The notes under the pieces: generated by a model
Told to the model about the DNA's origin: nothing
Seen by the model: only the letters and a program-made list of their open reading frames with translations
The model's database searches: none
Shown here: one piece after another, positions 7,255 to 31,081 of the stretch
Position numbering within the stretch: position 1 is the first letter of the stretch
Layout: each line of letters begins with the position of its first letter
Source of the DNA: Myxococcota bacterium
Lineage (GTDB): Bacteria; Myxococcota; SpSt-1050
Reading direction: 5' to 3'
Assembly: GCA_049969675.1 (NCBI GenBank)
Contig: JBMFOP010000010.1
Location: forward strand, 1 to 43,026
DNA: 43,026 bases
Made by a program: the position numbers and the translations under genes

Positions 7255-7270
7255 AAAACCACCAATCATA

Positions 7271-9910: not shown

Positions 9911-11689
9911 TCAGGGATGGAAGGAAAAACAGCCCTTTGGGATCTTGGTGGCCCTGGCTCGCCCCCACGCCGCCCGGTACAAAACGAGGTTGCTTCCGCT
10001 GTCCAGAACCACCGTATCCAGCTCCGTTTCCTGGAACCAGCTGCCCCCGGGTGGCTCAAAGGCAAAAGTCACCGGCGTTTGCGGGTGGGTGATGTCGTAG
10101 GCGTGAACAGGCAGATCCGCCGTTTCGTTGGCGCTGGTGCTGACGATGAGGTAGTTGCCGATACCCGTGACGTTGTTGTACTGCCAGGACAGGCCGGTTA
10201 TGGAGAAAAGCTGTTGCGGGGAGCCCGGGTTGGAGAGGTCGTAAACCGCCGCCGCCACCGTGGAGAAAGGCTTGTAAACCACGTAAAGGCGGTTACCCCA
10301 CACATCAAAATCTCTTACGCCGTCTAAACCTCTCCAGCCGGGAATGGAAATGGTGGCCACCTGGCTTGGGGCTACGGCGTTCGCGACGTTGAAGATCAGG
10401 ATGTTGTTGCTGACAAGGTCGGTGGTCACGAGGTGAGCGCTGGCACCCGACCCCACCACGCGGATCAAGCCGCGTGCAGAGGTGTTGGGAAGGGTAGCCA
10501 CGACCTGCAAGCTGGACGGGTTGGACATATCGGCGATGTCAATACCGCCCGTTGCCTGCCCCTGGGCGAGGTAGGCGGCGGCGTAGACCTTGCCGTTTCC
10601 AGCCACGAACAGGGCAGCGTTTCTGGCGCCGCGGGACGTGGGGATGTAAAAGGGAGGGGTGATCCGAAAGCGCTGGAGTGGCTGGCTGAACCCCGTGAGT
10701 TGGCCCTGGGCGCCGGTGGTTACGGAAAAGGTCACCCACCCAAAGTTCATGAACATGGCGAGCCCCGTGGGGTTGTCGGGCAAGAGGGCCAGATCCCACT
10801 GCTCGGTGTCGTCGTCGGGAGAGCCTTCAATGAGTCCCCATGGAGTATAAGGTGCACCTTCCATTGCAAGGACTGGATTTTCTGGATTTGTCACATCATA
10901 AATATTTGCTGAGGTGTAGTTGGAAAAGATGAGGTAGTCCTTGCCACCGTACCTCCAGCGGTTGATGCGGTAGGTACGGCCGGTGGGGGAAAGCTCCCGG
11001 CCATCCGGGCAGCTGGTGCAGTCCCAGAAGTATTGAGTCACTATCCCACCCACACAATCAGAACTCTCTATGTCTGTTATATCCCCTATATCTGCTCCTG
11101 CATCTCTTATATCAATATAACTGTCCTCTATTTCAATATCTTCTCCTGTTATATCTCCTGTTTCCTCTCCTCCATCCAGAGACCCTCCCATACATCTGCC
11201 TCTCCTACCATCTCCATATTCGCATACAGAGTTCTGTGGACATATTTTGCCAGTACAACAAAATATCGGATTGAATATGGATACATCCTCCCATCTCTCA
11301 CATCTGCCATTAAAACATACCTCACCATCCACACATTCACACGAATTATTACACAACTCATTTTTATTTATATCTCCAATTACATCATCCGCTAATCTTG
11401 CATCAGTTATATCCTCTACCTCAATTGTTACATCTTCAATCTCATTATTTATATCGCCTATGTGATCAATTATGTCTTCTATTATCCCTTCTGTATCTCT
11501 TTCGCTTACCATTATATCACCACCATTATCGGGCAACAGAAGAACATCTCCGCCATCATATTCATATTTATCTTATCCACAATCAATACAGGTAATATCT
11601 TTTGGTTCCTCCTTAACAGTGCTGGAACAGGAGTAAATTAGCAGAATATATACTAAAATCATCAGTGAATAGACAGATTTGTCCTTCAT
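9911..11689 (-). pseudogene. Lipoprotein with Asp-rich linkers, Cys knot and C-terminal LVIVD-like beta-propeller; in-frame TAA at codon 39
   Basis: ATG 11689 with GAGGT SD gives MKDKSVYSLMILVYILLIYSC (lipobox-like). TAA at 11575-11573 is followed in frame by DKYEYDGGDVLLLPDNGG, joining ORF 9911..11536. Repeats YDVTNPENP, ADMSNPSSL, YDLSNPGSP, YDITHPQTP. Confidence 0.7.
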
Positions 11690-11717
11690 ATTTTTACCTC
11701 TTTAATTCAATAGTTAT

Positions 11718-14234
11718 TTACTTCAAAGTCAATGTGTTTTGACCATAGTAAACATAGCCTGTACCGGCTGTCCTTCTAATTTCAATTGATATATAGCCAA
11801 CACCAGAAGGCTTTGTATAGATTATAACAGGACAATTTAATGCAAATGTATTGGGGTAGGCAGGGGCGGTAAATGGGCAGGGACTACCTACCTGAATACC
11901 ATTGACCTTAAAAATGATTTCTCCTGATGTACCATTATTAACAGCGGTTACAAATCCAAGCCCTCTTAGTGTATTTCCGGGTATTGAATCAAAGTCAACT
12001 GCCCATCTGTTTATTTCTAAAAATGTGGTACCATCAGTACCATATAGAGTCTCTGGTGTGCCGGTCAACACAACCGCCGCATGCCAGCTGTCAACCATAT
12101 CAGCATTGAGATTTGGAACCTGTGTTGTAGAAGTTACTTTCATTGGTGGTGTGCCGGTGGCTATATCAGAAATCAACAGTCCGCTCGCACGAATATTACC
12201 TGTAACATCCAGTTTCTGTGTTGGGGAGCTATTGCCTATTCCAACATAATCAGTCTCGCCATCAAAATGAATCTTTGCTCCACCAGCATTTGCAATTTCA
12301 AAGGAGCCATTATAGCTGGTTGCATATAAACTCCATTCTGAACTCCTTGTCCCATTAACCGGGCCGGTGTAGTTATATGTAAGTTTTATCCCTGTATAAC
12401 CAGCCGCACCGCTACTTCTATAAAGGTGCAATCTCTCGGTAGGATTGGCAGTTCCAATTCCGACATTTCCGGAGGTTGTAGCAAGATAGGTATTCCCAGA
12501 GACTGTAAGTGAATCGAGTGTCCCAACTCCAGTGATATTTGAGTATGTCCCAACTGAAAGGTCACTGTTTGTTATGGTACCATCTATTATCATTGCCGAA
12601 CTTATACTATTTGCCTGATTTTCATTTACAAATGTTGAATCACAGGTATTGCAGGAGGTAATTCCGGTATTGTCTGTACCACACATAAAATATTCAACGC
12701 CGGGTTGCTCTACATAATATTTTACAACCTGACCATCAGTGCAACCCGATTTATTTAATTTTGAAAGAGTGATAGTAGCATTGGCTATGTCAGAACCGGT
12801 AATTGTCCCGTCTGTTATCATCGCAGATGTTATACTATTTGCCTGTCCCTCATTTACAAACCTTGTATCATATGCACTCCCATCCTGATAACTATTTGAA
12901 AGAGAGAATGTAGTTCCATTTAACTGAAGGCCTGTGCCAGCAGAATAGGTGGTATCATTGTCATATGCATAGGTCCACTCACTCCCTGTGAATTTAAGAA
13001 TTTGATTTACCGATGGATTTCCAGAAGAGAGGGGGAAACCTCCAATTCCAACCACGATAGGGTCTGGATAGTTTCCTTTAAGATCCCCACCAGCAACTGT
13101 CCCCTTTGTTATGTCATCCGATGAATCTGTATCACCAATATTTGAAATTATGATTTCATTGGGTAACATACCAGGATTAATTGAGATTCCATTTCCAGAT
13201 TTAATATTAAAATTACCAGCGGCATCTGGTTGATTATTATTAATAGTGGTAATGCCTGCAATATCCGAAGAGCATATCCATTTTCCATCTGAGGATGAAT
13301 ATCTCATTATCTGTCCATCATTACAACCCGATTTACTTAATCTATCTATATTTACTGAGCCAGCGGCAATATCATCATTTGTAATTGTCCCGTCTTTTAT
13401 CATAGATGAGTCAATACTTGATACCTGTCCAATCTGGACATAGATATTGTCAAGATATGTCTTATCAATTGAGATTGTACCAATCCCCACTATCGGATTT
13501 GGGTCTACAACAATCCCGATTCCACCACTGATTGCAATCTGATTACTGCATATATCACACTCTACCGTTCCATCTTCATTTATCTTCTTTACACAGGTGC
13601 CGGTACTACAAAATCCACTTATCCTATTCTGCTTCGCAATAAAGACCTGATAATCATCCTTTGAAAGATATCCATCATTACTCGCATCTGCCTTCTGAAT
13701 TCCAATGCTACCAGTATCGGTGATGGTTCCCCCAGTCAGGGGTGCAAGTGCGCTTATCTGCTTCACTCCCGGGATGGAGGATGCATCCCCTACCCACTTC
13801 CCATTCTCATCTATTATCTTGTTATTCCCAATATATATACTGCTCGGATGAATATCCCCAACCACATCATAGGCGGTAAAGGCAAATGGGACAGAACCTA
13901 TCCTCTGCCTCGGACTCATCGCCTCATTGTTGATTCTGACCTCAAGAAAGAGGTCATACCTATCTGCAAAAATAGACATCAGATTTATATTTTTGCCTAT
14001 CTCAATGGCATAAAATCCATCTCTAATGTTTACATTCCCTATGTCCTCTTCAAGTAAAGGATTACCTCCACTTACAGCATCATAAATCCCAAAAGAGATA
14101 TTCACATTCCCATTTACTGGATTCCCATTTGTATCCGTTAGATACCCTTGATGCAGGATTACTCTTGGGATATCTCCTGCATATACAGTAGTGGAAAGTA
14201 AAATGATAAAAGCACAAAACAATTTCTTTATCAT
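11718..14234 (-). CDS. Secreted fibre/adhesin-like protein with tail-fibre-like repeats
   Basis: Signal peptide (...TTVYA), N-domain IPRVILHQGYLTDTNGNPVNG...MSPRQRIGSVPFA, three GQANSITSAMITDGTIT-type repeats, two GNVGIGTANP/YVGIGNSSP fibre motifs. AAGGAGG SD. Confidence 0.75.
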   Translation of the reverse strand: MIKKLFCAFIILLSTTVYAGDIPRVILHQGYLTDTNGNPVNGNVNISFGIYDAVSGGNPLLEEDIGNVNIRDGFYAIEIGKNINLMSIFADRYDLFLEVRINNEAMSPRQRIGSVPFAFTAYDVVGDIHPSSIYIGNNKIIDENGKWVGDASSIPGVKQISALAPLTGGTITDTGSIGIQKADASNDGYLSKDDYQVFIAKQNRISGFCSTGTCVKKINEDGTVECDICSNQIAISGGIGIVVDPNPIVGIGTISIDKTYLDNIYVQIGQVSSIDSSMIKDGTITNDDIAAGSVNIDRLSKSGCNDGQIMRYSSSDGKWICSSDIAGITTINNNQPDAAGNFNIKSGNGISINPGMLPNEIIISNIGDTDSSDDITKGTVAGGDLKGNYPDPIVVGIGGFPLSSGNPSVNQILKFTGSEWTYAYDNDTTYSAGTGLQLNGTTFSLSNSYQDGSAYDTRFVNEGQANSITSAMITDGTITGSDIANATITLSKLNKSGCTDGQVVKYYVEQPGVEYFMCGTDNTGITSCNTCDSTFVNENQANSISSAMIIDGTITNSDLSVGTYSNITGVGTLDSLTVSGNTYLATTSGNVGIGTANPTERLHLYRSSGAAGYTGIKLTYNYTGPVNGTRSSEWSLYATSYNGSFEIANAGGAKIHFDGETDYVGIGNSSPTQKLDVTGNIRASGLLISDIATGTPPMKVTSTTQVPNLNADMVDSWHAAVVLTGTPETLYGTDGTTFLEINRWAVDFDSIPGNTLRGLGFVTAVNNGTSGEIIFKVNGIQVGSPCPFTAPAYPNTFALNCPVIIYTKPSGVGYISIEIRRTAGTGYVYYGQNTLTLK

Positions 14235-14255
14235 CGTAGACCTCCTTAAAACATT

Positions 14256-14876
14256 TCACTTCTTAAAAAGCATACTTCTGTGCAGAATAAATTGACTGTT
14301 TTTCATCTCATCAGACGCCGTAAAGCCGGTTACTGATTCAAGAGTATAATTTACCGAGCTACATACACCAGCATTGGAATCATATACAGATTCAAGCCTT
14401 ATGATATAATTGACCCGCGTATCTATTCCACCATCTCCTACATCCAATACATCCTCTAACGATACATCCTCTACATCCTCCAACGATACATCTTCTATAT
14501 CAGGTATATCCTCAATAACATCAGTAAAATCGGTTATGTCTGATACATCCCCTATATCTGCAATGTCTGATATATCCTCTATATCAGATATATCTGCTAT
14601 ATCTCTGACATCCATTATCTCAGAGACATCGCCAGTGTCATTTACATCCACAAGATCTGTTGTATCAGTAATATCTGTGGAGATTATATCTGAGATTGCA
14701 TCTGTCCCGGCATCTCTGGCAATTCTTATACACCCCTTCTGTTTATCACAGGTATATCCTTCTTTACAGTCCATATCTGTCTTACACTGGTATGAAAAGT
14801 CATTAATCCCTATATCCTCAGAACATGCAAAGGTGAGGAGCAGACCAAAAAACAAGAGAGACTTTATATATCTCAT
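14256..14876 (-). CDS. Lipoprotein with Cys knot and long Asp-rich (D-x-x)n linker
   Basis: Start reassigned to ATG 14876 (AGGAGG SD). MRYIKSLLFFGLLLTFAC lipobox, CKTDMDCKEGYTCDKQKGC, DISDIEDISDIADIGDVSDIT and a tandem EDVSLEDV repeat. Confidence 0.8.
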   Translation of the reverse strand: MRYIKSLLFFGLLLTFACSEDIGINDFSYQCKTDMDCKEGYTCDKQKGCIRIARDAGTDAISDIISTDITDTTDLVDVNDTGDVSEIMDVRDIADISDIEDISDIADIGDVSDITDFTDVIEDIPDIEDVSLEDVEDVSLEDVLDVGDGGIDTRVNYIIRLESVYDSNAGVCSSVNYTLESVTGFTASDEMKNSQFILHRSMLFKK

Positions 14877-14895
14877 AACCACCTTCCTCCTTGTA

Positions 14896-15738
14896 TTAAA
14901 AATTATATGAGGTTGTAAAAAGCAATTTTCCATTGTCAATAATAATTGAGACTGTCCTGTTATTCTCCTTTCTAATCTTATCCAGAATGAAATAACTGGC
15001 AACTCCACCAACAATCCCTATTGAACCCAAGGTCATAAGGGTGTTCCCCAGAACCACCTTACCATCAATATCATCCTGTTTACTCTGTGCCTCTTCTTTT
15101 GTAATTCCTATGATGTTTCCCAATTCATCTCTTGGTGCGCTACTTAATTTCTGACGATAGTCATCTGCCTCAGATGCGGCATTGAGTCTCACAATCAATC
15201 CGGGGATCAAAAGTGCCACACCGGTTCCAAGTATGCTGATAGGTATAATATTTTTCTTAAAGAAATTCTCCTCTTTCTCGTGCAATATCTCTTTTGAGAT
15301 TACTCTGACATTTTCATTAAGAGATGGATTTATGGGCTTTGCCTCAATAACTCGTGTGGATGAGGACTTATCTTCTTTCTTCAAATCCTTCTTTATCTTT
15401 GCAAAAGGCTCGCGCAATTTTGGAGAGACAGATGGAGATAGTGTAAAATCCGGGTCTATCTCATATATCTCTTTAATTACACCATCCGCCAGTGCCTTTC
15501 TATCAGATAAGATATAAATAAAAGCCTTGTATTTATATAACTCTACCAGTTCTTCCTTCTTCATATTGTATTTGTATCCCTCAAGTTGATTTATCTCCTT
15601 GAGACACTTCTCATATTCCATAGAATCATATAGCTCAATCACTCTTTTGATCTTTGCAGAGTATTCCTCTGCGTAAAGTGAGGTGGTGAAAATAATCAAT
15701 AATAATAGGATTATATTTGTTTTGATATAATTTTGCAT
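14896..15738 (-). CDS. Exported TPR-like protein with two hydrophobic segments and C-terminal Phe
   Basis: Start ATG 15738 (GGAG SD). Signal peptide ...TTSLYA, helical N-domain, hydrophobic segments IIPISILGTGVALLIPGLIV and LGNTLMTLGSIGIVGGVASYFIL, ends ...LLFTTSYNF. Confidence 0.75.
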   Translation of the reverse strand: MQNYIKTNIILLLLIIFTTSLYAEEYSAKIKRVIELYDSMEYEKCLKEINQLEGYKYNMKKEELVELYKYKAFIYILSDRKALADGVIKEIYEIDPDFTLSPSVSPKLREPFAKIKKDLKKEDKSSSTRVIEAKPINPSLNENVRVISKEILHEKEENFFKKNIIPISILGTGVALLIPGLIVRLNAASEADDYRQKLSSAPRDELGNIIGITKEEAQSKQDDIDGKVVLGNTLMTLGSIGIVGGVASYFILDKIRKENNRTVSIIIDNGKLLFTTSYNF

Positions 15739-15778
15739 ATTACTAACTCCAGAGATAAGATTAACTATCACAATATAA

Positions 15779-15807
15779 ATTATGTCATAATTCATTTTTA
15801 GTGTCAA
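15779..15807 (-). promoter_or_regulatory. Sigma70 promoter of the surface-protein operon
   Basis: TTGACA (15807-15802), 17 nt spacer, CATAAT (15784-15779) with an extended -10 TG. Confidence 0.65.
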
Positions 15808-17202: not shown

Positions 17203-17736
17203 AATTTTGTTTTCAGAATCAATTTATGTGCCAGAATTTTTCTTAAAATTATTTGTAATTACTTAAAGGTCAGGTAAAAACCTGAGTGCTTGTGTCTTGT
17301 CTCATAATAAATGTTATAGTTAAGCCGATAAGGACTTTCTTTAAATATTTATGACTTTGCTCTGTATTCTTTGTAGTACTTAATGACCTTTCCTGCATCT
17401 TAAATATTCTGAATATCACTTCATCCGTCTCAATTATTTTTGCGTTTGTGTTCATAAAAATTTTCTATTTTCTACAGGGCAACATTAAATCATATTTATA
17501 GAGACATAACACTAAGTTGAGTTTCATCCGATTGGAGTCGTTTATTTAATTGAATGTATGATGTGATTGTTGACGGTTGAAAATCCATTTGAGTATTTTT
17601 CATCACCTAAAATATCGTTATTGTAACAAAGACAGACACATTTAATTTAGAACATATTGTTTTTTTTATATCAATTTCTGAAACTTCTGATCTTAATAGA
17701 GCATCTAAAATACTGATTGATTCAGGAGGTAATTTT

Positions 17737-18336
17737 ATGTGTGATGTATTAAAAATTGGCCAGAAATTGGAAAATGTAAGTTTTGATGCCTATGACCCGG
17801 AGAAGAAGGAGTTTGTTCAAAAAGAGACAGATGAATTCTTAAAGGCAGGTAGATGGTTTATATTCTTCTTCTATCCGGCTGATTTTACATTTGTTTGCCC
17901 GACGGAATTAAAGGACCTATCTGACAAGTATGCTGAACTAAAGAGATTGGGTGTTGAGGTGGTCTCTTTTTCTACAGACACAAAATTTGTGCATCTGGCA
18001 TGGAAGGATACAGAACCTTTATTAAAAGATATCAAATTTTTAATGGGGGCTGACCCAACAGGTAAAATAGCCCGGCTACTGGGTGTTTATGATGAAGAGA
18101 CAGGGCTCGCAAGGAGAGGAACATTTATCTTTGACCCTGATGGAAGACTTGTAAGTGTTGAAATCTCTTATGACAATGTGGGTAGAAATGCTGATGAATT
18201 GCTCAGAAAGGTTAAAGCCCATATTTATCTCTCAAAGCATCCAGATGAGGCCTGCCCGGCTAAATGGAGAGAGGGGGAAAAGACATTGAAACCCTCTGAG
18301 GAGATTGTGGGAAAGGTCGGCTATGTCTTAAAATAA
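17737..18336 (+). CDS. ahpC: 2-Cys peroxiredoxin (AhpC family)
   Basis: FYPADFTFVCPTE peroxidatic motif, EACPAKW resolving motif. AGGAGG SD. Confidence 0.95.
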   Translation: MCDVLKIGQKLENVSFDAYDPEKKEFVQKETDEFLKAGRWFIFFFYPADFTFVCPTELKDLSDKYAELKRLGVEVVSFSTDTKFVHLAWKDTEPLLKDIKFLMGADPTGKIARLLGVYDEETGLARRGTFIFDPDGRLVSVEISYDNVGRNADELLRKVKAHIYLSKHPDEACPAKWREGEKTLKPSEEIVGKVGYVLK

Positions 18337-18587
18337 GAGAATTTTGCAGGATATTATATAACCTGAATATATTAAAATATATAAGTAAAAGTATTGCATA
18401 AAAATAGTAATCTGAGTCGGAAATAATTTAAGTTATCTTTGTTCCTTAAAGTCCGTTTGAAATATTAAACATTGGTTTGAAAAAATTATTGTTAAGCTGT
18501 AAGATTTTCTTAGAAAATTTTGAATCCTAAAATAGAGAGCGGACTTAAAGGCGATTGACATTATTTTCATTTTAAGTTAATAGACTA

Positions 18588-18643
18588 TATCGGAGATGGA
18601 GTCCTCCGTAAAACTGCCTGTCAATATGGCTGATGACTCCTGC
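18588..18643 (+). ncRNA. Fluoride riboswitch (crcB motif)
   Basis: GGAGATGGAGTCCTCC-GTAAAACTGCC-TGTCAATAT-GGCTGATGACTCCTGC matches the GGnGAUGGnGUUCnCC...AAC.GC...GCUGAUGACnCCU pattern. P1 GGAG/CTCC, P2 GCC/GGC, pseudoknot GGAGTC 18598-18603/GACTCC 18635-18640. TTGACA at 18555. Confidence 0.9.
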
Positions 18644-18668
18644 TAAAATTTTAAGCAGGAGGTTTTTT
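18637..18668 (+). terminator. Riboswitch expression platform: terminator/anti-SD hairpin
   Basis: CTCCTGCT 18637-18644 pairs with AGCAGGAG 18654-18661, followed by G and 6 T. The stem overlaps the pseudoknot strand and sequesters the AGGAGG SD of ATG 18669. Confidence 0.8.
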
Positions 18669-20369
18669 ATGCTTTCCTCTAACAGTAGTGAGAATGACAA
18701 AGCCCTGAATAAGATTATTGAGATATCAGAAAATCTTGGGATTGTATTTATTGAGAGGGATTGTAAAGAGGTTGTAGATAGATTAATGGGAGGTAGATTC
18801 AATATAGTTTTTCTGGGGCAATTTAAGCGCGGAAAATCTACATTAATAAATGCCTTCTTAGGCAGGGATATTCTCCCGTACGGTGTTGTACCTGTCACCG
18901 CGATTGTCTCTGTGATTAGATATGGTGAGGTTGAGTGTTGCCTGGTAAAGATGCAGGATGGGACAGAGAACGAGATTGGCTTTGATGAGATTTATCTATA
19001 TGCAACGCAGAAAGAGAATCCAGATAATAAGAAAGGTGTTGAATATATTGAGATTAGATTGAGGAATGATTATCTAAAAAGAGGTCTCTTTCTTGTAGAT
19101 ACCCCTGGTATCAGTTCTATATCTGAATCAAATACAATGGTTACAAAGGGTTTTCTTCAGAATATTGATACAGCAGTAATTGTTCTGGGAGTTGACCCCC
19201 CAATTTCCTACGACGAATTTGAGGTGATAAGAGAGATTAAAAAGAGAATTAAGGAGATTATCTTTGTTATCAATAAGGTGGATAAAGAACCTGTAGAGGA
19301 TATTGAGGCTATCAGAAAATTCACTACGGATATCTTGAAGAAGGAATTTAATCTTGAAAATCCTGTAATATTTTGTGTGAGCGCAAAAGAGAGATTTGAA
19401 GGTAGAAACTCTTATGACTGGAATAATTTTGTGCATAAAATAGATGAGATGCTGCTAAATAAGAGAGCCATAATCTCGGATAGTTATAAGAACGCAATTG
19501 ATAGGTTAACAAATCAATTGAAAGATGAGATTGATAGATATATTCAGGTTTTGAAAGAGCCAATTGAGAAATCAAGAGAGAAGGTAGTTTTATTAAACGA
19601 ATTTAAAAAAGAGGCAGATATCTTTATTAGAGAACTTGGATATAGATTTCAATCAGAGCAGGATAGAATATCTCAATTAATAGACCTTGCTCAGAAAAAA
19701 TTTCTTGATGAAAAGAAGGATGATATAAATAATGAATTTGAATCAGCATTTGATAGACTCTTAAATGAGCAGGTAAACAGCAACGGTTCATATTACAATG
19801 AAATACATAAGATTGCAGAAAAATATGTAAATCAGTGCATAGAGAGAATTTCAGGAGATGTTATTAGATATTATTCAGAATTTTCCAGAAGATATGCCGA
19901 GGAGATAAATAGACTTGAGAGTAAAATAAAAAGCATTCTAAATAGTGAGTTGAGTGTTGATGATTCTCCCAATATAAATATGTATGAAAGGAGTGAATTC
20001 TATTTCCATCATTTTATGAGATATACATCCTCTTCACCTCTTAAATTTCTTATTAATATATTTTTACCCAAAAGACATAGAATCAGAGTAATGAAGGGTG
20101 AACTTAAGGAGTATCTGGACTGGTTAATTTATGCAAATTGTTCAAGATATAATGGTGATATCAATCAGAGAATAATTGAAAGCCGCAGGAGGATAGAGGC
20201 AGATTTTAAGAGGAAGATTGATGAATTAATTGGGCGTGTAAATAATGCTGTCATCTATGCCGATAGATTTGCAAAAGAGGGGGAGAGTAGAATTAAAGGT
20301 GAGATATATAAATTATTGAGCTATAAAAGTCAGATAGAAGAGATCAGGTGTTTTCAAACTCAAGTCTGA
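18669..20369 (+). CDS. Bacterial dynamin-like GTPase
   Basis: G1 GQFKRGKST, G2 PVT, G3 DTPG, G4 NKVD, long helical stalk with hydrophobic tip SPLKFLINIFLP. Start reassigned to ATG 18669 (AGGAGG SD, 6 nt spacing). Confidence 0.9.
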   Translation: MLSSNSSENDKALNKIIEISENLGIVFIERDCKEVVDRLMGGRFNIVFLGQFKRGKSTLINAFLGRDILPYGVVPVTAIVSVIRYGEVECCLVKMQDGTENEIGFDEIYLYATQKENPDNKKGVEYIEIRLRNDYLKRGLFLVDTPGISSISESNTMVTKGFLQNIDTAVIVLGVDPPISYDEFEVIREIKKRIKEIIFVINKVDKEPVEDIEAIRKFTTDILKKEFNLENPVIFCVSAKERFEGRNSYDWNNFVHKIDEMLLNKRAIISDSYKNAIDRLTNQLKDEIDRYIQVLKEPIEKSREKVVLLNEFKKEADIFIRELGYRFQSEQDRISQLIDLAQKKFLDEKKDDINNEFESAFDRLLNEQVNSNGSYYNEIHKIAEKYVNQCIERISGDVIRYYSEFSRRYAEEINRLESKIKSILNSELSVDDSPNINMYERSEFYFHHFMRYTSSSPLKFLINIFLPKRHRIRVMKGELKEYLDWLIYANCSRYNGDINQRIIESRRRIEADFKRKIDELIGRVNNAVIYADRFAKEGESRIKGEIYKLLSYKSQIEEIRCFQTQV

Positions 20370-20389
20370 GAAGAAGTTTCCTATAATTT

Positions 20390-20457
20390 AAAAAATCATT
20401 GCCCGGATTCAGCTTAATTTGAGGACTGTGGGTTTTATTGCCTGAATCCGGGCAATG
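20390..20457 (-). terminator. Terminator with 16-bp perfect stem and 29-nt loop, downstream of gdh and convergent with the dynamin gene
   Basis: CATTGCCCGGATTCAG 20397-20412 / CTGAATCCGGGCAATG 20442-20457, with a 6-T tract following on the minus strand. Confidence 0.75.
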
Positions 20458-20479
20458 GAGAGGATAATCTAAATATCAA

Positions 20480-21772
20480 TTATGGGAAGATTCCCCTTTC
20501 CTGGTAAACCTTCTCAAGTCGTTTGAGGGCTACAATATATGCGGCTGTTCTCCAGTCTGTATTAAATTCTTTTGCAGTTTCTCTAACCCTTCTATATGCC
20601 GGGACAATCTTCTTTTTTAGTTTGCTGTCAACTTCTTCCAATTCCCAATATTCTGACCTCTTATTCTGTAACCATTCAAAGTAGCTTACAACTACTCCGC
20701 CAGCATTGCAAAGTACATCAGGGATAAAATCTATTCCTCTCTTTGCCAGAATAATGTCTCCTTCAGGAGTAGTGGGACCATTTGCACCTTCTGCAATCAA
20801 TTTGACATTGATTTTTGGAGCTGTCTCGTCTGTTATCTGATTTTCAAGAGCGGCTGGAATAAAGATATCTGCTTTTGTGGTGATAAATGTATCAAAGTCA
20901 ATTGCGTCTGCTTTGGGGTAACCTCTTACACCACCATTTTTCTTAACATAGGCAGCAAGCTCTTCAGGATCAATACCTTCTTTATTAATTATTGCACCTG
21001 TTACATCATGCACTGCCAGAAGTTTTGCACCTTGGGGCTTTAATAATCTTGCAGCCCAACTTCCTACATTTCCAAATCCCTGAACTATGTATGTTGCTTT
21101 TGAGAGGTCAAAATTGTTATCCTTTGCCCATTCTTCAATACAATAAATCACTCCCTGACCTGTTGCCTTCTCTCTTCCAAGAGACCCTCCTGATTCAATA
21201 GGTTTACCTGTAACAACATGAATGCATCTCTGCCTCTCATTTGGCGGTACCATTGATAGATATGTATCAAGAATCCACGCCATAATCTGGGCATTTGTGT
21301 TTACATCTGGAGCTGGTATGTCATATTCTGGACCAATATTATTTCCAAGAGCAAATGCAAATCTCCTTGTAATTCTTTCCAGCTCAGAAATAGAATATTT
21401 TGATGGGTCAATCTGAATTCCTCCCTTTGCTCCTCCAAATGGGATATCAGTAATTGCCGATTTCCATGTCATCCAGGTAGCCAGTGCTCTTACTTCATCA
21501 ATATTCACATCTGGATGAAATCTTAATCCACCTTTATATGGACCGAGCACATTGTTGTGCTGGACTCTATATCCAGTAAAAATCTCAATTTTGCCATTAT
21601 CCATCTTAACAGGGAAGTGGACAGTTATCTCATTTTGTGTATGAGAAAGAATTTTACGAATGTTCTGGTCAAAGTTTATAAGGTCTGCGGCCTTTTCAAA
21701 TTGTAGCCGCACAGAATCATAGACTGACCTTCTTTTTTTTGGGATACTAATTTCTCTTTCGGCTTTTGCCAT
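20480..21772 (-). CDS. Glutamate dehydrogenase (Glu/Leu/Phe/Val dehydrogenase family, GudB/RocG-like, probably catabolic)
   Basis: GYRVQHN, GPYKGGLRFHP, MTWK, PFGGAKGG, DIPAPDV, QGFGNVG, EGANGPT, NAGGVVVSYFEW. Catabolic direction is inferred. Confidence 0.93.
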   Translation of the reverse strand: MAKAEREISIPKKRRSVYDSVRLQFEKAADLINFDQNIRKILSHTQNEITVHFPVKMDNGKIEIFTGYRVQHNNVLGPYKGGLRFHPDVNIDEVRALATWMTWKSAITDIPFGGAKGGIQIDPSKYSISELERITRRFAFALGNNIGPEYDIPAPDVNTNAQIMAWILDTYLSMVPPNERQRCIHVVTGKPIESGGSLGREKATGQGVIYCIEEWAKDNNFDLSKATYIVQGFGNVGSWAARLLKPQGAKLLAVHDVTGAIINKEGIDPEELAAYVKKNGGVRGYPKADAIDFDTFITTKADIFIPAALENQITDETAPKINVKLIAEGANGPTTPEGDIILAKRGIDFIPDVLCNAGGVVVSYFEWLQNKRSEYWELEEVDSKLKKKIVPAYRRVRETAKEFNTDWRTAAYIVALKRLEKVYQERGIFP

Positions 21773-21791
21773 AATTTGCCTCCTGTTTTAA

Positions 21792-22058
21792 TTAAATATA
21801 TTCTTCACACTGCCATATAGGAACACCTTTCTGGCAAATTGAACACATTTTCCTGTTTTCACAATTCTTGCAGAGTCCCTCATATCCTTCTTCGTAAGCA
21901 ATTTTTGTGGGGGAATACATAAAGGCTTTTTCTTCTTTGCCGCATCCATTGGTGAATTCTTCACAAAAATGAACTGGTTCAGAATTGGTTTTAATGTAGG
22001 AGCAATGCTCTTTTCTTATGCAGGTCTCACAAAGACCTATCGACTTATTATCTTTCAT
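21792..22058 (-). CDS. Small Cys-rich protein with two GLCxxC-x5-C-x11/12-CEE[FY] repeats (putative metal or Fe-S binding)
   Basis: GLCETCIRKEHC...FCEEF and GLCKNCENRKMC...QCEEY. AGGAGG SD, 19 nt gap to the gdh start. Confidence 0.8.
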   Translation of the reverse strand: MKDNKSIGLCETCIRKEHCSYIKTNSEPVHFCEEFTNGCGKEEKAFMYSPTKIAYEEGYEGLCKNCENRKMCSICQKGVPIWQCEEYI

Positions 22059-22129
22059 TGCCTATCCTCCTGTTAATGGTTAAGCGTTTCATCTCGCGCG
22101 CGCCCTCCATCTGGAGGTGATTAATAATG

Positions 22130-22145
22130 CACAATTTCTGTGCCA
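22130..22145 (-). promoter_or_regulatory. Sigma54 (-24/-12) promoter of the Cys-protein/gdh operon
   Basis: TGGCAC-AGAAA-TTGTG versus consensus TGGCAC-N5-TTGCW. Adjacent to an enhancer-binding-protein gene, with dyad TGGGGAA-TTT-TTCACCA at about 22231-22247 as candidate upstream activating sequence. Confidence 0.65.
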
Positions 22146-22255
22146 ATCTTATATTGAGGTTAGATTTAGCTAATATATTGATATGACGCAATATTTAGGC
22201 AGATTATAATAATTCAATCTTTATAAGGTGTGGGGAATTTTTCACCAATAAGGAA

Positions 22256-23605
22256 TTATTCCTCAGCATCTACAATTTTATATTTTCTTAACTTCTCTCT
22301 AAGAGTCTTTCTGTCAATCTTAAGAATCTCTGCAGTTTTAGATTTATTGTTTTTGGTGTATTTCAGGACATTGATGATATGTTCTCTCTCAACTTCTTCA
22401 AGGCTCATCTCATTATTACTAAAATTAGTAATTGAATAACGCATTATCTCTGGAAGATCAGGCACATCTATTAGATTGCTTTCACACATTACAACCATTC
22501 TTTGAATAATATTCTGCAATTCTCTTACATTGCCAGGCCATGAATAGTTTTTGAATATATTTAGTACATTATCCGATATTTTAAGGTCGGGTTTGTTATA
22601 CTCTTTTTTGTAAAGTTCAAGAAAGTAGGCTGTAAGAAGAAAGATATCTTCACCCCTTTCCCTGAGAGGTGGGATATCAATTGGGATTACATTAAGTCTA
22701 AAATATAGATCCTCTCTAAATTTCCCTTGCTTAACAAGGGATAATATATCTTTATTTGACGCTGCAATTATTCTTGTATCCACTTTAATATTTTTGCTTG
22801 AACCTACCATATAGATTTCTTTTTCCTGAAGAACCCTTAAAAGTTTTACCTGAGTTGCAAGAGATGTCTCTGTTATTTCATCCAAAAAAATAGTTCCTTT
22901 TTCCGCTGTTTGAAAGAATCCTGCCCTTGTTTCATTTGCTCCTGTGAAAGAGCCTTTTAAGTGTCCGAATAACTGGCTTTCAAGAAGACCTTCAGGAATT
23001 CCTCCGCAATTTACCGCTACAAAAGGTGCAGTTGCCCGAGGACTATTATAATGAATAGCCTTTGCTACCAATTCCTTTCCAGTTCCACTCTCTCCACTTA
23101 TCAAAACAGTGGCATTAGTTTGAGATGCCTTTTTAATTGATGTTATAACCTTTTTAATACCTGATGATTCCCCAATAATACCAAATTCATTGGATTTTGA
23201 GATTATACGATTAACTGAGGTCTGTATATTAATCTTATCAATCGCCTTTTGAATCGCGTTTAGCAATTCCTCTTCTGTAAATGGTTTGGGTAGATATTCC
23301 TCAGCTCCATTCTTTATAGCTGTAACAGCGGTATCTATTGATGCAAATCCAGTAATAACAATTGCTTGAATATTTTTATAATTTTCTGATATGTATTTTA
23401 ATATATCTAATCCCGAAATTCCCGGCATTTTTATATCAGTAATTACAATGTTGATATCTTCAGTTTTCAATGTCCTGATTGCATTTTCTCCATTATCTTT
23501 TAGAATAAGATTGTATCCTTTAGGTTTGAGAATTCTCTCTATCATTTCCAGGGTTTCAAGAGAATCATCAATTACGAGAATTTTATAATCTTTGTTCATA
23601 TTCAA
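22256..23605 (-). CDS. Sigma54-dependent response regulator (NtrC family)
   Basis: ILVIDD, TDIKMP, GESGTGKE, GSFTGA, WPGNVRELQN, C-terminal HTH. Start may be ATG 23599. Confidence 0.95.
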   Translation of the reverse strand: MNMNKDYKILVIDDSLETLEMIERILKPKGYNLILKDNGENAIRTLKTEDINIVITDIKMPGISGLDILKYISENYKNIQAIVITGFASIDTAVTAIKNGAEEYLPKPFTEEELLNAIQKAIDKINIQTSVNRIISKSNEFGIIGESSGIKKVITSIKKASQTNATVLISGESGTGKELVAKAIHYNSPRATAPFVAVNCGGIPEGLLESQLFGHLKGSFTGANETRAGFFQTAEKGTIFLDEITETSLATQVKLLRVLQEKEIYMVGSSKNIKVDTRIIAASNKDILSLVKQGKFREDLYFRLNVIPIDIPPLRERGEDIFLLTAYFLELYKKEYNKPDLKISDNVLNIFKNYSWPGNVRELQNIIQRMVVMCESNLIDVPDLPEIMRYSITNFSNNEMSLEEVEREHIINVLKYTKNNKSKTAEILKIDRKTLREKLRKYKIVDAEE

Positions 23606-23617
23606 TCCTCATCAACA

Positions 23618-25345
23618 TTAATTACAGGAATTACAGGGAATTTTAATACAAAATTGAGAACCTTTTCCCTCTTCGCTTTCAACTTCAATTTTGCCACCAT
23701 GTGATTCTATAATCTCAAGTGCAACTGATAGACCAAGACCTGTTCCTTTACCAACCTCTTTTGTTGTAAAAAATGGGATAAATATCTGGTTTTTTACCTC
23801 TTCTGACATTCCAATGCCGGTATCTTTTATACAGATTCTTATTTCATTTGAAATTTTTTCAGTTTTAATAGTAAGATCGCCACCATTTGGCATTGCCTGA
23901 ATAGCATTCACAATAATGTTCATAAGAACCTGAGTTATTTGAGATTGGTCAGCTTCAATCTCTAATATTTCATTAGATAATAAATCTATTAGTTTAATAT
24001 TTTCTTTCTTGAGTCTATTGTCAAAAAATTGAATAAGTTCTTTAATAATATTATTAACATTAATTATAGTCTTCTTGGTTGGCACCTGACGGGCAAAAAT
24101 AAGCAGTTTACGGATTATCTCTCTTCCGTAAATAGCTGCGTTTATTATTTTATCAATATCCTTTTCAATCTGTTCAGGTAATAGTGGATTTTTTTTAATA
24201 AGCTGTGCAAATCCAAGAATAATAGTGAGTGGTTCATTTAGTTCGTGGGCAATTCCCGTTGAAAGTTGACCAATAGTTGCTAATTTATCTGCGTGTCTTA
24301 ATTGAATAGATATTTTTTCTTTATCTTCTTCAAGTTGTTGTTGCTCTATATATTTTGATATTTCAAGGGCAACGGCTTCAAGAAATGTAAATTCCTCTTT
24401 CAAAAATATGAAATCGGTTGTCTCAGGTTTTTTCTTAAAAGAGTAACATATTTCAATATATCCGCGCTCTTCACCCCATATCTTAATTGGCTTTTTAATA
24501 CTAATTTTAGATTCATTAAAGTTTTTTGATTTATATTCTTGTGAGTTTATGAATATTCTGGCTGAGGCATATTGAGGGATTAAAAAGGCAGTTGGTAGTA
24601 TGTCAGTGATATTTTGAATTACATCATCAAAAGAAAATTCTTTGTGCTGAATAATTTTATTTATGTTATAGAGGCAGGAAAGCTCCTTCATTCTCTCTCT
24701 CAAACTGAACTGAGCCCTCCTGTCTGATACCGATATTCCAATTGTCTGACCGACGGTTTCATAAAATTCTGTTTCGCTTTTTGTAAAGAAGTGCTTATTT
24801 TTAGATTTGAGTATTAGAAGCCCGTTGTCATCAGTATTAATCTGGAATGGCAGAATAATAAGAGATTTATATATCCCGGATAATTTTAATGTTTTACTAA
24901 CTGTGCCATCTTTTGCATCAAAGATTTTTATTTCCAGTGGAATGTCTGTATCTGGAATCCATATAGCACCGGTTCTTGTAAAATATTTATTAGTCTTGAT
25001 GATCTTACCTGATAATATTGCCGAATAAAGAATCTCAAAGTCATTAATATTTTTAAAATCTGGATATGTTGCATCTGCATCATTAATAGAATTTAAGACT
25101 TCGTATAAGAACGTATTAGATGGCTTCTTTAATAAAATTCCTCTATAATATTTTGTCTCCTCTTTTGAAATGAATTCAGCTGAGTCACACTTTGAAAAAT
25201 CAATAAACATCTTTAATATCAATTTGATAAAGTCAGTTCGTGAGATGCCCAAATTTGCATATCGGGATATCTGTCTTGAAAGTGTACAGAAATCCCACGC
25301 ACTCTTGTTTGAACCATCTGGCATGAGTTTGTATCTAATCTTCAT
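23618..25345 (-). CDS. Cytoplasmic sensor histidine kinase (GAF-like input domains)
   Basis: H-box GIAHELNEPL, N-box NAIQAM, DTGIGM, PFFTTK, GTGLGL. No evident transmembrane helix. Confidence 0.93.
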   Translation of the reverse strand: MKIRYKLMPDGSNKSAWDFCTLSRQISRYANLGISRTDFIKLILKMFIDFSKCDSAEFISKEETKYYRGILLKKPSNTFLYEVLNSINDADATYPDFKNINDFEILYSAILSGKIIKTNKYFTRTGAIWIPDTDIPLEIKIFDAKDGTVSKTLKLSGIYKSLIILPFQINTDDNGLLILKSKNKHFFTKSETEFYETVGQTIGISVSDRRAQFSLRERMKELSCLYNINKIIQHKEFSFDDVIQNITDILPTAFLIPQYASARIFINSQEYKSKNFNESKISIKKPIKIWGEERGYIEICYSFKKKPETTDFIFLKEEFTFLEAVALEISKYIEQQQLEEDKEKISIQLRHADKLATIGQLSTGIAHELNEPLTIILGFAQLIKKNPLLPEQIEKDIDKIINAAIYGREIIRKLLIFARQVPTKKTIINVNNIIKELIQFFDNRLKKENIKLIDLLSNEILEIEADQSQITQVLMNIIVNAIQAMPNGGDLTIKTEKISNEIRICIKDTGIGMSEEVKNQIFIPFFTTKEVGKGTGLGLSVALEIIESHGGKIEVESEEGKGSQFCIKIPCNSCN

Positions 25346-25509
25346 ATTTATTGAAATACGATATTGTAAAAAAAAAGTAAAGTAAAAAGAATTTGAAAAT
25401 ATACTATGATTTTATTATATTTCCTTTTTTGATTGACAGAGTATAAACTTGGTAGTACCACTCTCAATTGCTGTGGGTTTTATTGGAGTTTTTATTACAA
25501 TTTTGTTTT

Positions 25510-25570
25510 ATGCCAGTGGTGTCTGTCAGGCCAACTGGCATTTTTTTTTTTAACTTCTGACAGAGGAGGA
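25510..25570 (+). promoter_or_regulatory. Leader terminator/pseudoknot-like attenuator upstream of gdhA
   Basis: ATGCCAGT 25510-25517/ACTGGCAT 25534-25541 stem with an 11-T tract (25541-25551). Loop TCTGTCAG 25522-25529 is complementary to CTGACAGA 25557-25564, which abuts the SD. Confidence 0.55.
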
Positions 25571-25577
25571 TTATCTT

Positions 25578-26933
25578 ATGTCCGTAATCAGCGATGTAAT
25601 TGCGAAAGTAAAAGAGAAGGACTCATCACAACCTGAATTTATTCAGGCCGTAACAGAGGTGATGACAACACTCGAGCCTACTGTAGAAAAACATCCTGAA
25701 TTTGTCAAAGCCAAGATCTATGAGAGAATTGTAGAGCCAGACCGCGTAATTATTTTTAGAGTTCCATGGGAGGATGATAAGGGAGAGATTCATGTCAACA
25801 GGGGTTTTAGGGTGCAATTTAACAATGCAATCGGTCCTTATAAAGGTGGTCTGAGATTTCACCCTTCAGTAAATCTCGGTGTTATTAAATTCCTTGGATT
25901 TGAGCAGATCTTCAAGAACTCACTCACAACCCTGCCTATGGGTGGAGGAAAGGGAGGCTCTGATTTTGACCCAAAAGGGAAATCAGATAGAGAGGTAATG
26001 AGGTTCTGCTATGCATTTATGAGAGAACTCTTCAGACATATAGGGGCAGATGTGGATGTCCCTGCTGGAGATATTGGGGTTGGTGCCAGAGAGATTGGTT
26101 TCTTGTATGGATATTACAAGAAGATCAGAAATGAACATACCGGGGTACTCACAGGAAAGGGGCTTGAATACGGTGGCTCACTGATCAGGCCCGAGGCTAC
26201 GGGATACGGAGTGGTCTATTTTGCGGCCGAGATGCTCGCTACCAGAAAAATGGATTTTGCGGGCAAGAGAGTGGTGATCTCTGGCTCGGGAAATGTCTCT
26301 CAATATGCAGTGGAAAAGGTAAATCATCTCAAGGGAAAGGTGATAACTCTCTCTGATTCAAATGGGACAATAGTTGATGAGGAGGGTATTGATGAGAAGA
26401 AACTGGCATTTGTGATGGAACTCAAAAATGTAAAAAGAGGTAGAATTAAGGAATATGCAGATAAATTCAAGGTACCATATTTTGAAGGAAAATCGGTTTG
26501 GGAAGTTATTAAAGAGAAGGGACTCAAGCACGACATTGCACTTCCCTGTGCCACTCAGAACGAAATCAATAAGGAGCTCGCAGAGGCGATGGTAAAGAAT
26601 GGCTGCTTCTGTGTATCAGAGGGTGCAAATATGCCATCTGACCTTGAGGCAATCAAAGTATATCAGAGCAATAATGTTCTATATGGTCCCGCAAAGGCGG
26701 CGAATGCAGGTGGTGTTGCCACATCCGGTCTTGAGATGAGTCAGAACAGCCTCAGACTCAGCTGGACGAGGGAAGAGGTTGACCAGAGATTGCATAATAT
26801 TATGAAGAATATTCACAAGTCATGTCTGGATGCAGCAGAGGCATATGGTAAGAAAGGCGATTATCTAGCTGGAGCAAATATCGCTGGATTTATAAAAGTT
26901 GCAAAAGCAATGCTTGCATATGGAGTAGTCTAA
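25578..26933 (+). CDS. gdhA: NADP-specific glutamate dehydrogenase
   Basis: EFIQAV, FRVPWEDD, GPYKGGLRFHPSVNL, KFLGFEQIFKNSLTTLPMGGGKGGSDFDPKGKSD, RPEATGYG, KAANAGGVATSGLEM. Confidence 0.96.
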   Translation: MSVISDVIAKVKEKDSSQPEFIQAVTEVMTTLEPTVEKHPEFVKAKIYERIVEPDRVIIFRVPWEDDKGEIHVNRGFRVQFNNAIGPYKGGLRFHPSVNLGVIKFLGFEQIFKNSLTTLPMGGGKGGSDFDPKGKSDREVMRFCYAFMRELFRHIGADVDVPAGDIGVGAREIGFLYGYYKKIRNEHTGVLTGKGLEYGGSLIRPEATGYGVVYFAAEMLATRKMDFAGKRVVISGSGNVSQYAVEKVNHLKGKVITLSDSNGTIVDEEGIDEKKLAFVMELKNVKRGRIKEYADKFKVPYFEGKSVWEVIKEKGLKHDIALPCATQNEINKELAEAMVKNGCFCVSEGANMPSDLEAIKVYQSNNVLYGPAKAANAGGVATSGLEMSQNSLRLSWTREEVDQRLHNIMKNIHKSCLDAAEAYGKKGDYLAGANIAGFIKVAKAMLAYGVV

Positions 26934-28594: not shown

Positions 28595-31081
28595 ATGACA
28601 AAGAGAGATAATTTTAGAGAAAGAGAGAATATGGTTGTAGAGAATACTTCAGCGGTAGAGATAAAGAGAGACATATTAAATAATTTATTCTGTCATCAGG
28701 GGAAATTTCCAGAGGTGGCTACTCTAAATGATTGGTATCTGGCGGTAGCCCAAACAGTGAGAGATAGATTGATGAAGAGATGGATATCCAGTTCACATAC
28801 ATATTTTGAAAAGCAGAGTAGAACTGTGGTCTATCTATCGGCTGAATATCTCCTTGGTCCACAGCTTGAAAATAATATGTTGAGCCTCGGTATTACAGAA
28901 CAGGTTAAAGAGGCACTTTCACTTCTAAAATTAAATTATGATATGATAATCAATGCAGAGGAGGAGCCAGGTCTCGGAAATGGTGGACTGGGGAGGCTTG
29001 CAGCCTGTTATCTGGATTCACTTGCTACTATGAGAATTCCGGCAATTGGTTATGGAATAAGATATGAGTTTGGGATATTTGATCAGATAATAAAAGATGG
29101 ATGGCAGGTTGAGATGACTGATAAGTGGTTACAGTTAGGTAATCCGTGGGAGATCCCGAGACCTGATATAATGTTTTATGTGAAATTTGGTGGACATACA
29201 GAGAATTATAATGATGAATCGGGTAGATTTAGGGTGAGATGGGTCCCGGATAGAATGGTGGTGGGAACTCCTTATGATAATTGCATCCCCGGATATAAGA
29301 CAAATAATTCTATAATGTTGCGTCTCTGGAAGGCAGAGGCCTGTGAGTCATTTGACTTTGCAAGCTTTAATGTAGGAGACTACTACGGTGCCGTTCATGA
29401 AAAGGTGGTATCAGAGAATATTACAAAGGTCTTATACCCCAATGATGAGCCTATGGCTGGCAAACAACTCAGATTGGAGCAGCAATATTTCTTTGTATCC
29501 TGTTCATTGCAGGATATGGTGAGAATATTTTTACAAAGAGACAGGGATCTTAGAAATTTTCATAAGAAGTATGTTATTCAGCTCAACGATACACACCCTG
29601 CAATAGCTATAGCTGAGTTGATGCGTATACTTCTGGATGAACATAACTTTACATGGGAGGATGCCTGGGAGACTACCAGAAAGACATTTGCCTATACAAA
29701 CCATACATTATTGCCAGAGGCACTTGAAAAATGGCCTTTATCACTTTTTGGAAAGATTTTACCCCGACATCTTGAGATTATATATGAGATAAACAGGAGA
29801 TTTCTGGACGAGGTAAGAAGGAGGTTTCCAGGGGACGAGCAACTTGTAAGGGATGTGTCATTATTTGAGGAAGGGAATGAAAAATATGTGAGGATGGCGA
29901 ACCTCGCTGCGCTCGGAAGTTTTTCAATAAATGGTGTTGCAGAGCTACATACAGAACTTTTAAAAAAGACTGTATTGAACGGCTTCTATAGAATCTTTCC
30001 AGAGAGATTCAATAATAAGACAAATGGGGTTACACCAAGGAGATTTATCGCCGTCTGTAATCCCGGCCTGTCCTCTCTTATCTCAGAGGTAGCTAATAAG
30101 AGATGGCTTATAGATACAAGCGAGCTGAGGATTCTGGAGAGATATGCAAACGATGTAAGGTTTCAGGAGAGATTTAAAAAGATTAAAATAAATAATAAGA
30201 GAAGATTGAGTGAGGTTATAAGGCAGAGGACCGGTGTCGTGGTTGACCCTGAATCCATATTCACCATTCAGGCGAAGAGGATACACGAGTATAAGAGACA
30301 ACATCTGAATGTGCTTCACATAGTTGCAAGATATCTTGATATCAAATTTAACAAGAATTTTGAGTATGAACCGAGAACTTTCATATTTGCAGGCAAAGCC
30401 GCTCCCGGATATTTTATGGCAAAACTGATTATTAAGTTGATTAATTCTGTCGCAGAGGTGATTAATTCGGATACTTCTATTAAGGGGCTGATAAAGGTTG
30501 TATTCCTGCCCGATTTTAATGTAAAGAACGCGCAGATAATCTATCCTGCAGCGGATATATCTGAACAGATAAGTACAGCAGGGAAGGAGGCATCAGGGAC
30601 AGGGAATATGAAGTTTGCCTTCAATGGGGCACTTACGGTGGGGACTCTTGATGGGGCAAATGTGGAGATAAGGGAGGCTGTTGGTAAGGAGAATTTCTTT
30701 TTATTTGGACTCACTGCTCAGGAGGTTATGGATTATAAGAAAATGGGGTATAATCCGAGAGATATTTTTAATAATAATAATCAGTTAAGATCAGTAATAG
30801 ATTTTATTATGTCATACGAAATCAATGGCAAAAATGGGAATATATTTACCCCGCTTGTAAATTCTTTGATAAATAATGATGAATATATGTTATTTGCAGA
30901 TTTTGATTCTTATGTAAGGACAGAGAAGATTGTAGACGAGACCTATAGGCAAAGTAGAGAGTGGTATAAGAGGGCAATATTGAATGTCGCCAGAATGGGA
31001 AGATTTAGCTCAGATAGGGCAATACTTGAATACAATAGTGAGATATGGAAGGCACCAATCATAGAAGTAAATGCCGAATAA
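28595..31081 (+). CDS. glgP: Glycogen/starch/maltodextrin phosphorylase
   Basis: GLGNGGLGRLAAC, QLNDTHP, AYTNHT, NGVAELH, KRIHEYKRQHL, PLP-site EASGTGNMKF. Confidence 0.97.
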   Translation: MTKRDNFRERENMVVENTSAVEIKRDILNNLFCHQGKFPEVATLNDWYLAVAQTVRDRLMKRWISSSHTYFEKQSRTVVYLSAEYLLGPQLENNMLSLGITEQVKEALSLLKLNYDMIINAEEEPGLGNGGLGRLAACYLDSLATMRIPAIGYGIRYEFGIFDQIIKDGWQVEMTDKWLQLGNPWEIPRPDIMFYVKFGGHTENYNDESGRFRVRWVPDRMVVGTPYDNCIPGYKTNNSIMLRLWKAEACESFDFASFNVGDYYGAVHEKVVSENITKVLYPNDEPMAGKQLRLEQQYFFVSCSLQDMVRIFLQRDRDLRNFHKKYVIQLNDTHPAIAIAELMRILLDEHNFTWEDAWETTRKTFAYTNHTLLPEALEKWPLSLFGKILPRHLEIIYEINRRFLDEVRRRFPGDEQLVRDVSLFEEGNEKYVRMANLAALGSFSINGVAELHTELLKKTVLNGFYRIFPERFNNKTNGVTPRRFIAVCNPGLSSLISEVANKRWLIDTSELRILERYANDVRFQERFKKIKINNKRRLSEVIRQRTGVVVDPESIFTIQAKRIHEYKRQHLNVLHIVARYLDIKFNKNFEYEPRTFIFAGKAAPGYFMAKLIIKLINSVAEVINSDTSIKGLIKVVFLPDFNVKNAQIIYPAADISEQISTAGKEASGTGNMKFAFNGALTVGTLDGANVEIREAVGKENFFLFGLTAQEVMDYKKMGYNPRDIFNNNNQLRSVIDFIMSYEINGKNGNIFTPLVNSLINNDEYMLFADFDSYVRTEKIVDETYRQSREWYKRAILNVARMGRFSSDRAILEYNSEIWKAPIIEVNAE

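Follow-up and report, generated by a model that had tools for sequence, protein, structure and literature searches.

A fluoride riboswitch upstream of a dynamin-like GTPase gene in Myxococcota and other bacteria

Fluoride regulons and bacterial dynamins

The known fluoride riboswitch regulon comprises crcB/Fluc, eriC-F/CLC-F, Na+/H+ antiporters, enolase, ppa, usp and formate hydrogen lyase. The locus described here, from a member of the Myxococcota, shares with this regulon the aptamer, the presumed ON logic and a 3' hairpin that overlaps the pseudoknot (PMC2864571), and the operons of its relatives include crcB, DUF190, enolase, USP and antiporter genes. The locus differs in that a dynamin-like GTPase is the only cargo of the only such switch found in the genome, in which no exporter was found.

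What triggers most bacterial dynamins, and what they do, is poorly defined. Most bacterial dynamin-like proteins (DLPs) act in pairs (PMC6104087). BDLP1 of Nostoc (2j68/2j69) is the best Foldseek match of the GTPase (E 1e-21), and BDLP1 and Campylobacter DLP1/DLP2 (5owv) are its best profile matches (E 2e-27 and 1e-26), sharing the layout of G-domain, neck and trunk. These proteins are 14-18% identical to the GTPase, which differs from them in having neither a strongly hydrophobic paddle nor an adjacent partner DLP. IniA of Mycobacterium (6j72) is a peripheral DLP induced by stress; it binds acidic lipids and cuts membranes, and a role in maintaining membrane integrity has been proposed for it (PMC6715688). 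The GTPase is similar to IniA in length and matches it in structure and profile searches (Foldseek E 3.6e-19, profile E 1.9e-22), but the two proteins are 16% identical, and IniA is drug-induced within iniBAC whereas the GTPase gene is alone and riboswitch-led. DynA of B. subtilis, CrfC and LeoA/Eleos-type DLPs show weak G-domain matches. The DynA equivalog (NF052648) was rejected at 74.3 versus 1600 bits, the GTPase being a single-headed protein of 566 aa and the model having 1187 positions and two fused heads, and the CrfC equivalog (NF007368) was rejected at 24.4 versus 1146 bits. An anti-phage LeoABC/Eleos system was likewise rejected, as the PADLOC match to LeoA is weak (68 bits) and there are no LeoB/C neighbours.

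Each part of the locus is a member of a known family. The literature searched does not describe the two together, and the original gene tables may already list the pairing. The search returned no paper linking a fluoride riboswitch to a dynamin, the original motif gene-association tables lying outside it. The word dynamin is absent from the main text of PMC11139923, PMC7266159, PMC2864571, PMC5533749 and PMC9495176, and both dynamin and COG0699 are absent from eight additional files of PMC2864571 (Additional files 1 and 3 were outside the search).

The riboswitch, its gene and their surroundings

The window, that is, the whole stretch of DNA that was analysed, is 43,026 nucleotides long (contig JBMFOP010000010.1 of assembly GCA_049969675.1). 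The features of the locus are listed in Table 1.

Table 1. Features of the riboswitch-GTPase locus, in window coordinates
Feature	Position	Strand	Basis
Putative -35 hexamer TTGACA of the leader promoter (-10 uncertain)	18555..18560	+	sequence inspection, inference
Fluoride riboswitch aptamer (crcB motif, RF01734)	18583..18649	+	Rfam match and covariation
Aptamer P1	18592-18595/18604-18607	+	
Aptamer P2	18616-18618/18628-18630	+	
Pseudoknot, GGAGTC with GACTCC	18598-18603/18635-18640	+	
Predicted OFF-state hairpin, 8 bp (18637-18644/18654-18661) and 9-nt loop	18637..18661	+	computed fold
Shine-Dalgarno AGGAGG (18657-18662), then T6 (18663-18668; possible terminator tail)	18657..18668	+	sequence
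Dynamin-like GTPase, 566 aa	18669..20369	+	PF00350, motifs, AlphaFold2, Foldseek
Putative membrane-binding tip of trunk, residues ~443-465	19995..20063	+	AlphaFold2 model and alignment; role inferred
16-bp perfect inverted repeat, GTPase/glutamate dehydrogenase interval	20397..20457	.	sequence; arm single-copy in genome

Judged by its sequence, the RNA upstream of the GTPase gene is a genuine fluoride riboswitch by class. The earlier note on this DNA had described an intact crcB-class aptamer with P1, P2 and the 6-bp pseudoknot, and the covariance-model search that it proposed bears this out: RF01734 matches over model positions 1-64 of 64, and its 52.5 bits (E 7.4e-12) exceed the gathering score of 34. 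Across 14 aligned aptamers, pairing reaches 100% in the pseudoknot and 98% in P1, and compensatory changes are seen at 6 of 14 pairs; the covariation score was reached by none of 500 shuffles, in an alignment whose aptamers are related and whose structure was taken from the same sequences. The match is the sole fluoride riboswitch match in the genome (99.91% complete), and it ends 19 nt before the GTPase start.

The 3' strand of the pseudoknot was also said to be shared with a competing hairpin, and the computed fold agrees, 4 nt being common to both. The hairpin (-13.2 kcal/mol, z -3.8) covers five of the six nucleotides of AGGAGG and is followed by G, T6 and the ATG at 18669. What had been called a terminator hairpin with T6 that buries the Shine-Dalgarno (SD) sequence stands in part. 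A hairpin equivalent of 7-8 bp is present in all four genus members and in L150, a relative from a metagenome, and the SD is kept across the genus; the T6 is confined to this genome. The conserved OFF element, as predicted from these leaders, is the SD-burying hairpin, and the U-tract is particular to this genome. Because hairpin and SD are kept in the genus and the T6 tail is not, translational control is the likely conserved mode, and termination may possibly operate here too. The hairpin was not returned by a terminator scan that limits loops to 8 nt. In a fold constrained to mimic the bound aptamer the SD finds a new, weak pairing partner in 18672-18678. Neither constrained fold freed the SD, and translational ON switching was not reproduced by nearest-neighbour folding, a method unable to model the Mg/F pseudoknot and limited to that extent for ON-state folds. 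Fluoride-dependent ON switching would be expected from the known riboswitch class, and fluoride regulation of the GTPase gene is strongly supported.

TTGACA is similarly placed in G001, G002 and L150. The hexamer at 18555 was not among the hits of a promoter scan, which was uninformative overall (10 hits versus 9.9 expected). An in-frame ATG at 18633 is not a likely start, as it lies within the aptamer and the same frame in G002 stops after five codons.

The cargo is a dynamin-like GTPase, as the earlier note had claimed. PF00350 (Dynamin_N) matches with 90.6 bits against a cut-off of 27 (E 1.5e-25), and the protein has the motifs G1 GQFKRGKS (50-57), G2 T77, G3 DTPG (144-147) and G4 NKVD (202-205). 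Of 50 aligned homologues, all have G3 DTPG and 49 have G1 GQFKRGKS. The AlphaFold2 model (mean pLDDT 85.6) has long helices at 3-40 and 251-565, which form neck and trunk. Its top Foldseek matches are all DLPs (BDLP, IniA and then the Campylobacter DLP pair, at 14-18% identity), the best being 2j69 and 6j72 at 16-17% identity and TM 0.35-0.42, and a sequence-profile search agrees with this ranking. Residues ~443-465 comprise an aromatic and basic loop and then a short amphipathic helix, modelled as a low-pLDDT loop at 432-455 and a helix at 457-464, and this region is a putative membrane-binding tip. No transmembrane segment was found, the 19-residue hydropathy past residue 250 being below 1.6 in 50 of 50 homologues. 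Membrane binding is suggested by remote homology alone (the BDLP and IniA matches above), and GTP hydrolysis, oligomerisation and membrane remodelling would be expected from the family. A second full-length DLP is absent from the genome.

The upstream neighbour of the riboswitch-GTPase unit is a peroxiredoxin gene, and the downstream neighbour is a convergent glutamate dehydrogenase gene (20480-21772, minus strand). The inverted repeat between GTPase and glutamate dehydrogenase genes is possibly a transcript-end structure. No Fluc (CrcB) or CLC match was found in the window, as had been claimed, or in the whole genome, with controls matched in 11 of 14 and 12 of 14 genomes. A search of this genome for four members of relatives' operons, CrcB, DUF190, the P-loop ATPase and USP, likewise found none. 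The description of the gene as standing alone beside a convergent neighbour applies to this lineage. The subfamily as a whole does not conform to it, being usually found in crcB/DUF190/enolase/antiporter operons. Phage or plasmid cargo was rejected, the matches being one partial viral locus and ten distant partial plasmid matches, none covering 80%.

Elsewhere in the window, at 20480-26933, a histidine kinase gene, a sigma-54 activator gene and an 88-aa cysteine-rich ORF (21792-22058, minus) lie between a pair of glutamate dehydrogenase genes, each of which encodes the GGxKGG lysine. The interval 7585-15807 contains a run of ORFs of 232, 422, 541, 252 and 303 aa without a Pfam match, together with an ORF of 838 aa that weakly matches a phage tail-tip family, and two tRNA genes at 7175-7344 adjoin this run. 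Near-identical contigs from a hot-spring metagenome run extend over 17600-18486, 19106-20404 (with small gaps) and 20458-20911, leaving the riboswitch uncovered; these contigs are not independent because the run may be the source of this genome. The sequencing runs listed for the region include no RNA dataset.

Linkage of riboswitch and GTPase among relatives

Within the genus, the switch lies directly upstream of the GTPase orthologue in all three other members, and also in L150 (57% identity). In G000, G002, G003 and L150 (51-59% identity) the gene stands alone, complete and with its motifs preserved. In G001 the orthologue (L108, G001:C71, ~30251-30750, minus) is frameshifted and has lost most of the N-terminal part, including the GTPase domain, through either decay or an assembly fault. 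The riboswitch before the broken gene is intact (58.6 bits), and the GTPase is therefore dispensable there. G002 has a second fluoride riboswitch, which leads a Na+/H+ antiporter gene (L110:7654-8934, G002:C48); the antiporter has no tblastn match in the genome described here, where one partial PF00999 match (on C137) was the only one found. Fluc is absent from all four genus members, and CLC was found in G003 only, in a form without what we take to be the CLC-F motifs.

A sample of 150 phylum genomes was searched for the subfamily, a score above 550 bits defining a full-length member. Ten genomes carry it (nine full-length copies and the broken one in G001), and it was not found in the other 140. 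In every one of the ten carriers an RF01734 match that passes the cut-off precedes the gene on the same strand; in eight it lies within 200 bp, in one an antiporter gene intervenes and in another CLC and crcB do. Among the 140 phylum genomes without the subfamily, nine have RF01734 above the cut-off anywhere, under filters strict enough to lose weak matches. No switch was found upstream of the more distant DLPs in G006, G007 and G132 (7-9.5 kb of upstream DNA); those of G115 and G120 have too little upstream DNA for a call. The direct wiring of switch to GTPase also occurs in G016, G145, G128 and G195. All such counts treat related genomes as samples, though they are not independent.

The linkage extends to other phyla. 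A GTDB scan gave at least 587 relatives, and the best 80, mostly from Acidobacteriota at about 30% identity, were searched over a range of 8 kb with a switch model built from 14 Rfam-confirmed aptamers, five of them from the 80 loci. Within this range 69 of the best 80 loci have a same-strand upstream switch; 9 have an upstream-opposite, 10 a downstream-same and 8 a downstream-opposite switch, and the corresponding counts for the 54 of these loci with both flanks complete are 47, 7, 5 and 5. The switch is within 400 bp in only 10 of the best 80 loci, and no upstream switch was found in 11 of the 80 within the flanking DNA examined. With the Rfam model, a switch was found in 50 of 50 genomes from this best-80 set, 48 of them above the cut-off.

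In Chloroflexota, the gene is matched in 45 of 351 genomes. Leaving aside the centre genome, 40 of the other 44 were examined: the switch precedes the gene on the same strand in 38 (within 300 bp in 22), and 3 have one on the opposite strand; the Rfam and built models gave the same 17 matches on 14 cross-checked loci. Chloroflexota genomes without the gene have a switch above the cut-off in 7 of 60 cases (one, G224, unpublished). The homologue survey proposed in the earlier note thus finds the riboswitch kept upstream down to about 30% identity (10/10, 69/80 of the best loci and 38/40).

Classical fluoride genes are present in 63 of the best 80 loci (of at least 587). Counts for single families in these best 80 are DUF190 49, CrcB 46, P-loop ATPase 44, enolase 20, USP 18, antiporter 16 and Ehr-like 10, and two or more DLP ORFs are present in 22 loci. 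A link to Ehr/hydrogenase-4 operons was rejected, the few Ehr-like genes being often on the opposite strand. Recurring partners in the same best 80 include the P-loop ATPase of 260 aa (for example L075:10043-10822), a cysteine-rich 200-aa protein without a Pfam match (L092:6165-6779, 20 of 80) and a zinc-ribbon/HEAT protein (L046:9813-10205, 11 of 80). The Acidobacteriota G053, G057, G054 and G069 have 14-22 fluoride riboswitch matches each, often clustered.

In a FastTree phylogeny of 75 selected rows, the window lineage joins the core clade as its sister (support 99) on a long branch, a placement subject to long branches, composition bias (for which the window lineage is flagged) and non-independent kin. 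Two further DLP clades, of ~700 aa and ~565 aa, also lie behind fluoride switches, so that at least three DLP clades do so, and the direct wiring of switch to GTPase recurs in separate branches. Among the loci in which the ~700-aa clade has its own riboswitch are L028:3698-5870, L029, L047, L058 and L098. Some loci also encode a small helical protein of 140-175 aa (20 and 14 of the best 80 loci) that has no Pfam match and is similar to a segment of the ~700-aa DLP.

Possible functions of the GTPase

Fold and family suggest, with a probability that we put at roughly 0.6, that the GTPase is a fluoride-induced peripheral dynamin that protects the (inner) membrane. When fluoride is absent, the leader hairpin would form and hide the SD, and in this genome it may also terminate transcription at T6. 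Binding of Mg and F- would stabilise the pseudoknot, which needs 18635-18640, and the hairpin would be blocked and the GTPase made. The protein, with its IniA/BDLP-type G-domain, neck, trunk and amphipathic tip, would then bind the inner membrane and reshape or seal it by GTP-dependent fission or fusion. Such repair would lessen the harm done when HF enters, the cell acidifies and the proton-motive force is lost. Both the proton-motive force and the cytoplasmic pH fall under fluoride (PMC11139923), a Tn-Seq analysis of P. putida concluded that a stable membrane is important in its presence (PMC9796867), and in S. mutans fluoride damages the wall and membrane (PMC12700350). Points against this reading are the broken copy in G001, the 11 of the best 80 loci without an upstream switch and the lack of a second full-length DLP. 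The earlier note had offered two explanations, a membrane-remodelling arm of the fluoride response and compensation for a poisoned enzyme; the first is the best reading of the locus, as suggested by these comparisons, and the second is disfavoured.

Metal fluoride may instead act on the protein itself, locking GDP-bound G-domain dimers into a membrane coat or causing vesicle shedding, and so giving protection without an exporter. Fluoride would then act twice, on the RNA switch and on GDP-metal-fluoride dimers locked in a membrane-sealing or vesicle-shedding coat, in a defence independent of exporters. Both the gated protein and this twofold action seem doubtful. Five of the ten switch-plus-GTPase phylum genomes, this one included, have neither Fluc nor CLC, and the presence of at least three DLP clades behind fluoride switches is also in favour, but Fluc is missing from 70 of the 150 phylum genomes anyway. 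Moreover, Fluc is found in 41 of 50 genomes from the best-80 set (of at least 587 relatives); therefore the GTPase is usually an addition to Fluc and not a substitute for it. A general role as a Fluc substitute is not supported, since Fluc is present in 3 of the 10 switch-plus-GTPase phylum genomes against a baseline of 80 of 150 (kin that are not independent) and most genomes of the best-80 set have both. AlF4 density was not seen in crystals of the C. jejuni DLP (PMC6104087). If fluoride did act in this twofold way, the GTPase would be the only riboswitch-controlled fluoride response in this genome.

It is unlikely that the GTPase is an accessory scaffold that organises a regulon of Fluc, DUF190, P-loop ATPase, HEAT proteins and a second DLP, with the lone copy as a remnant. 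The frequency of DUF190, CrcB, P-loop ATPase and multiple DLP ORFs in the best 80 loci and the decay of the gene in G001, within the genus, are in line with such a role. Against it, G000, G002, G003 and L150 have the lone gene complete and with its motifs preserved, the operon partners CrcB, DUF190, P-loop ATPase and USP were not found in this genome, and direct wiring to the switch recurs in four further genomes (G016, G145, G128 and G195).

Compensation, in which metal fluoride (GDP-MgF3-/AlF4-) poisons a housekeeping GTPase and more of this enzyme is made through the switch, is quite improbable. This logic is known for enolase and pyrophosphatase (PMC11139923, PMC5533749), enolase genes occur in a quarter of the best 80 loci (of at least 587), and GDP-AlF4 is a standard transition-state mimic used on DLPs (PMC6104087). 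A housekeeping gene would be expected widely without a switch, but the subfamily was not found in 140 of 150 phylum genomes, its copy is the only full-length one in this genome and is broken in G001, and the switch is upstream in 10 of 10, 69 of 80 and 38 of 40 cases in the three samples. Compensation is disfavoured because the subfamily is found mostly behind the switch and not as a housekeeping gene.

Recent orphaning or chance, in which the switch once belonged to a lost exporter gene, is very improbable and is refuted by the conserved linkage: no exporter was found in this genome and the second switch of G002 leads an antiporter gene without a match here, but the switch is immediately upstream in four genus members and L150 and recurs in distant families and phyla (Acidobacteriota and Chloroflexota), whereas the earlier note had tied orphaning to homologues that lack the riboswitch.

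The switch ties a DLP subfamily to a small, cheap ligand, with which the action of a bacterial dynamin and its timing can be tested directly. The locus is a clean test case, in which a single switch leads a single gene, a partner DLP is lacking and neither Fluc nor CLC was detected. If the GTPase is indeed a membrane-protecting dynamin, membrane remodelling would join export, pH control and enzyme over-production as a response to fluoride, with a bearing on fluoride toxicity and on the engineering of strains that degrade organofluorine compounds.
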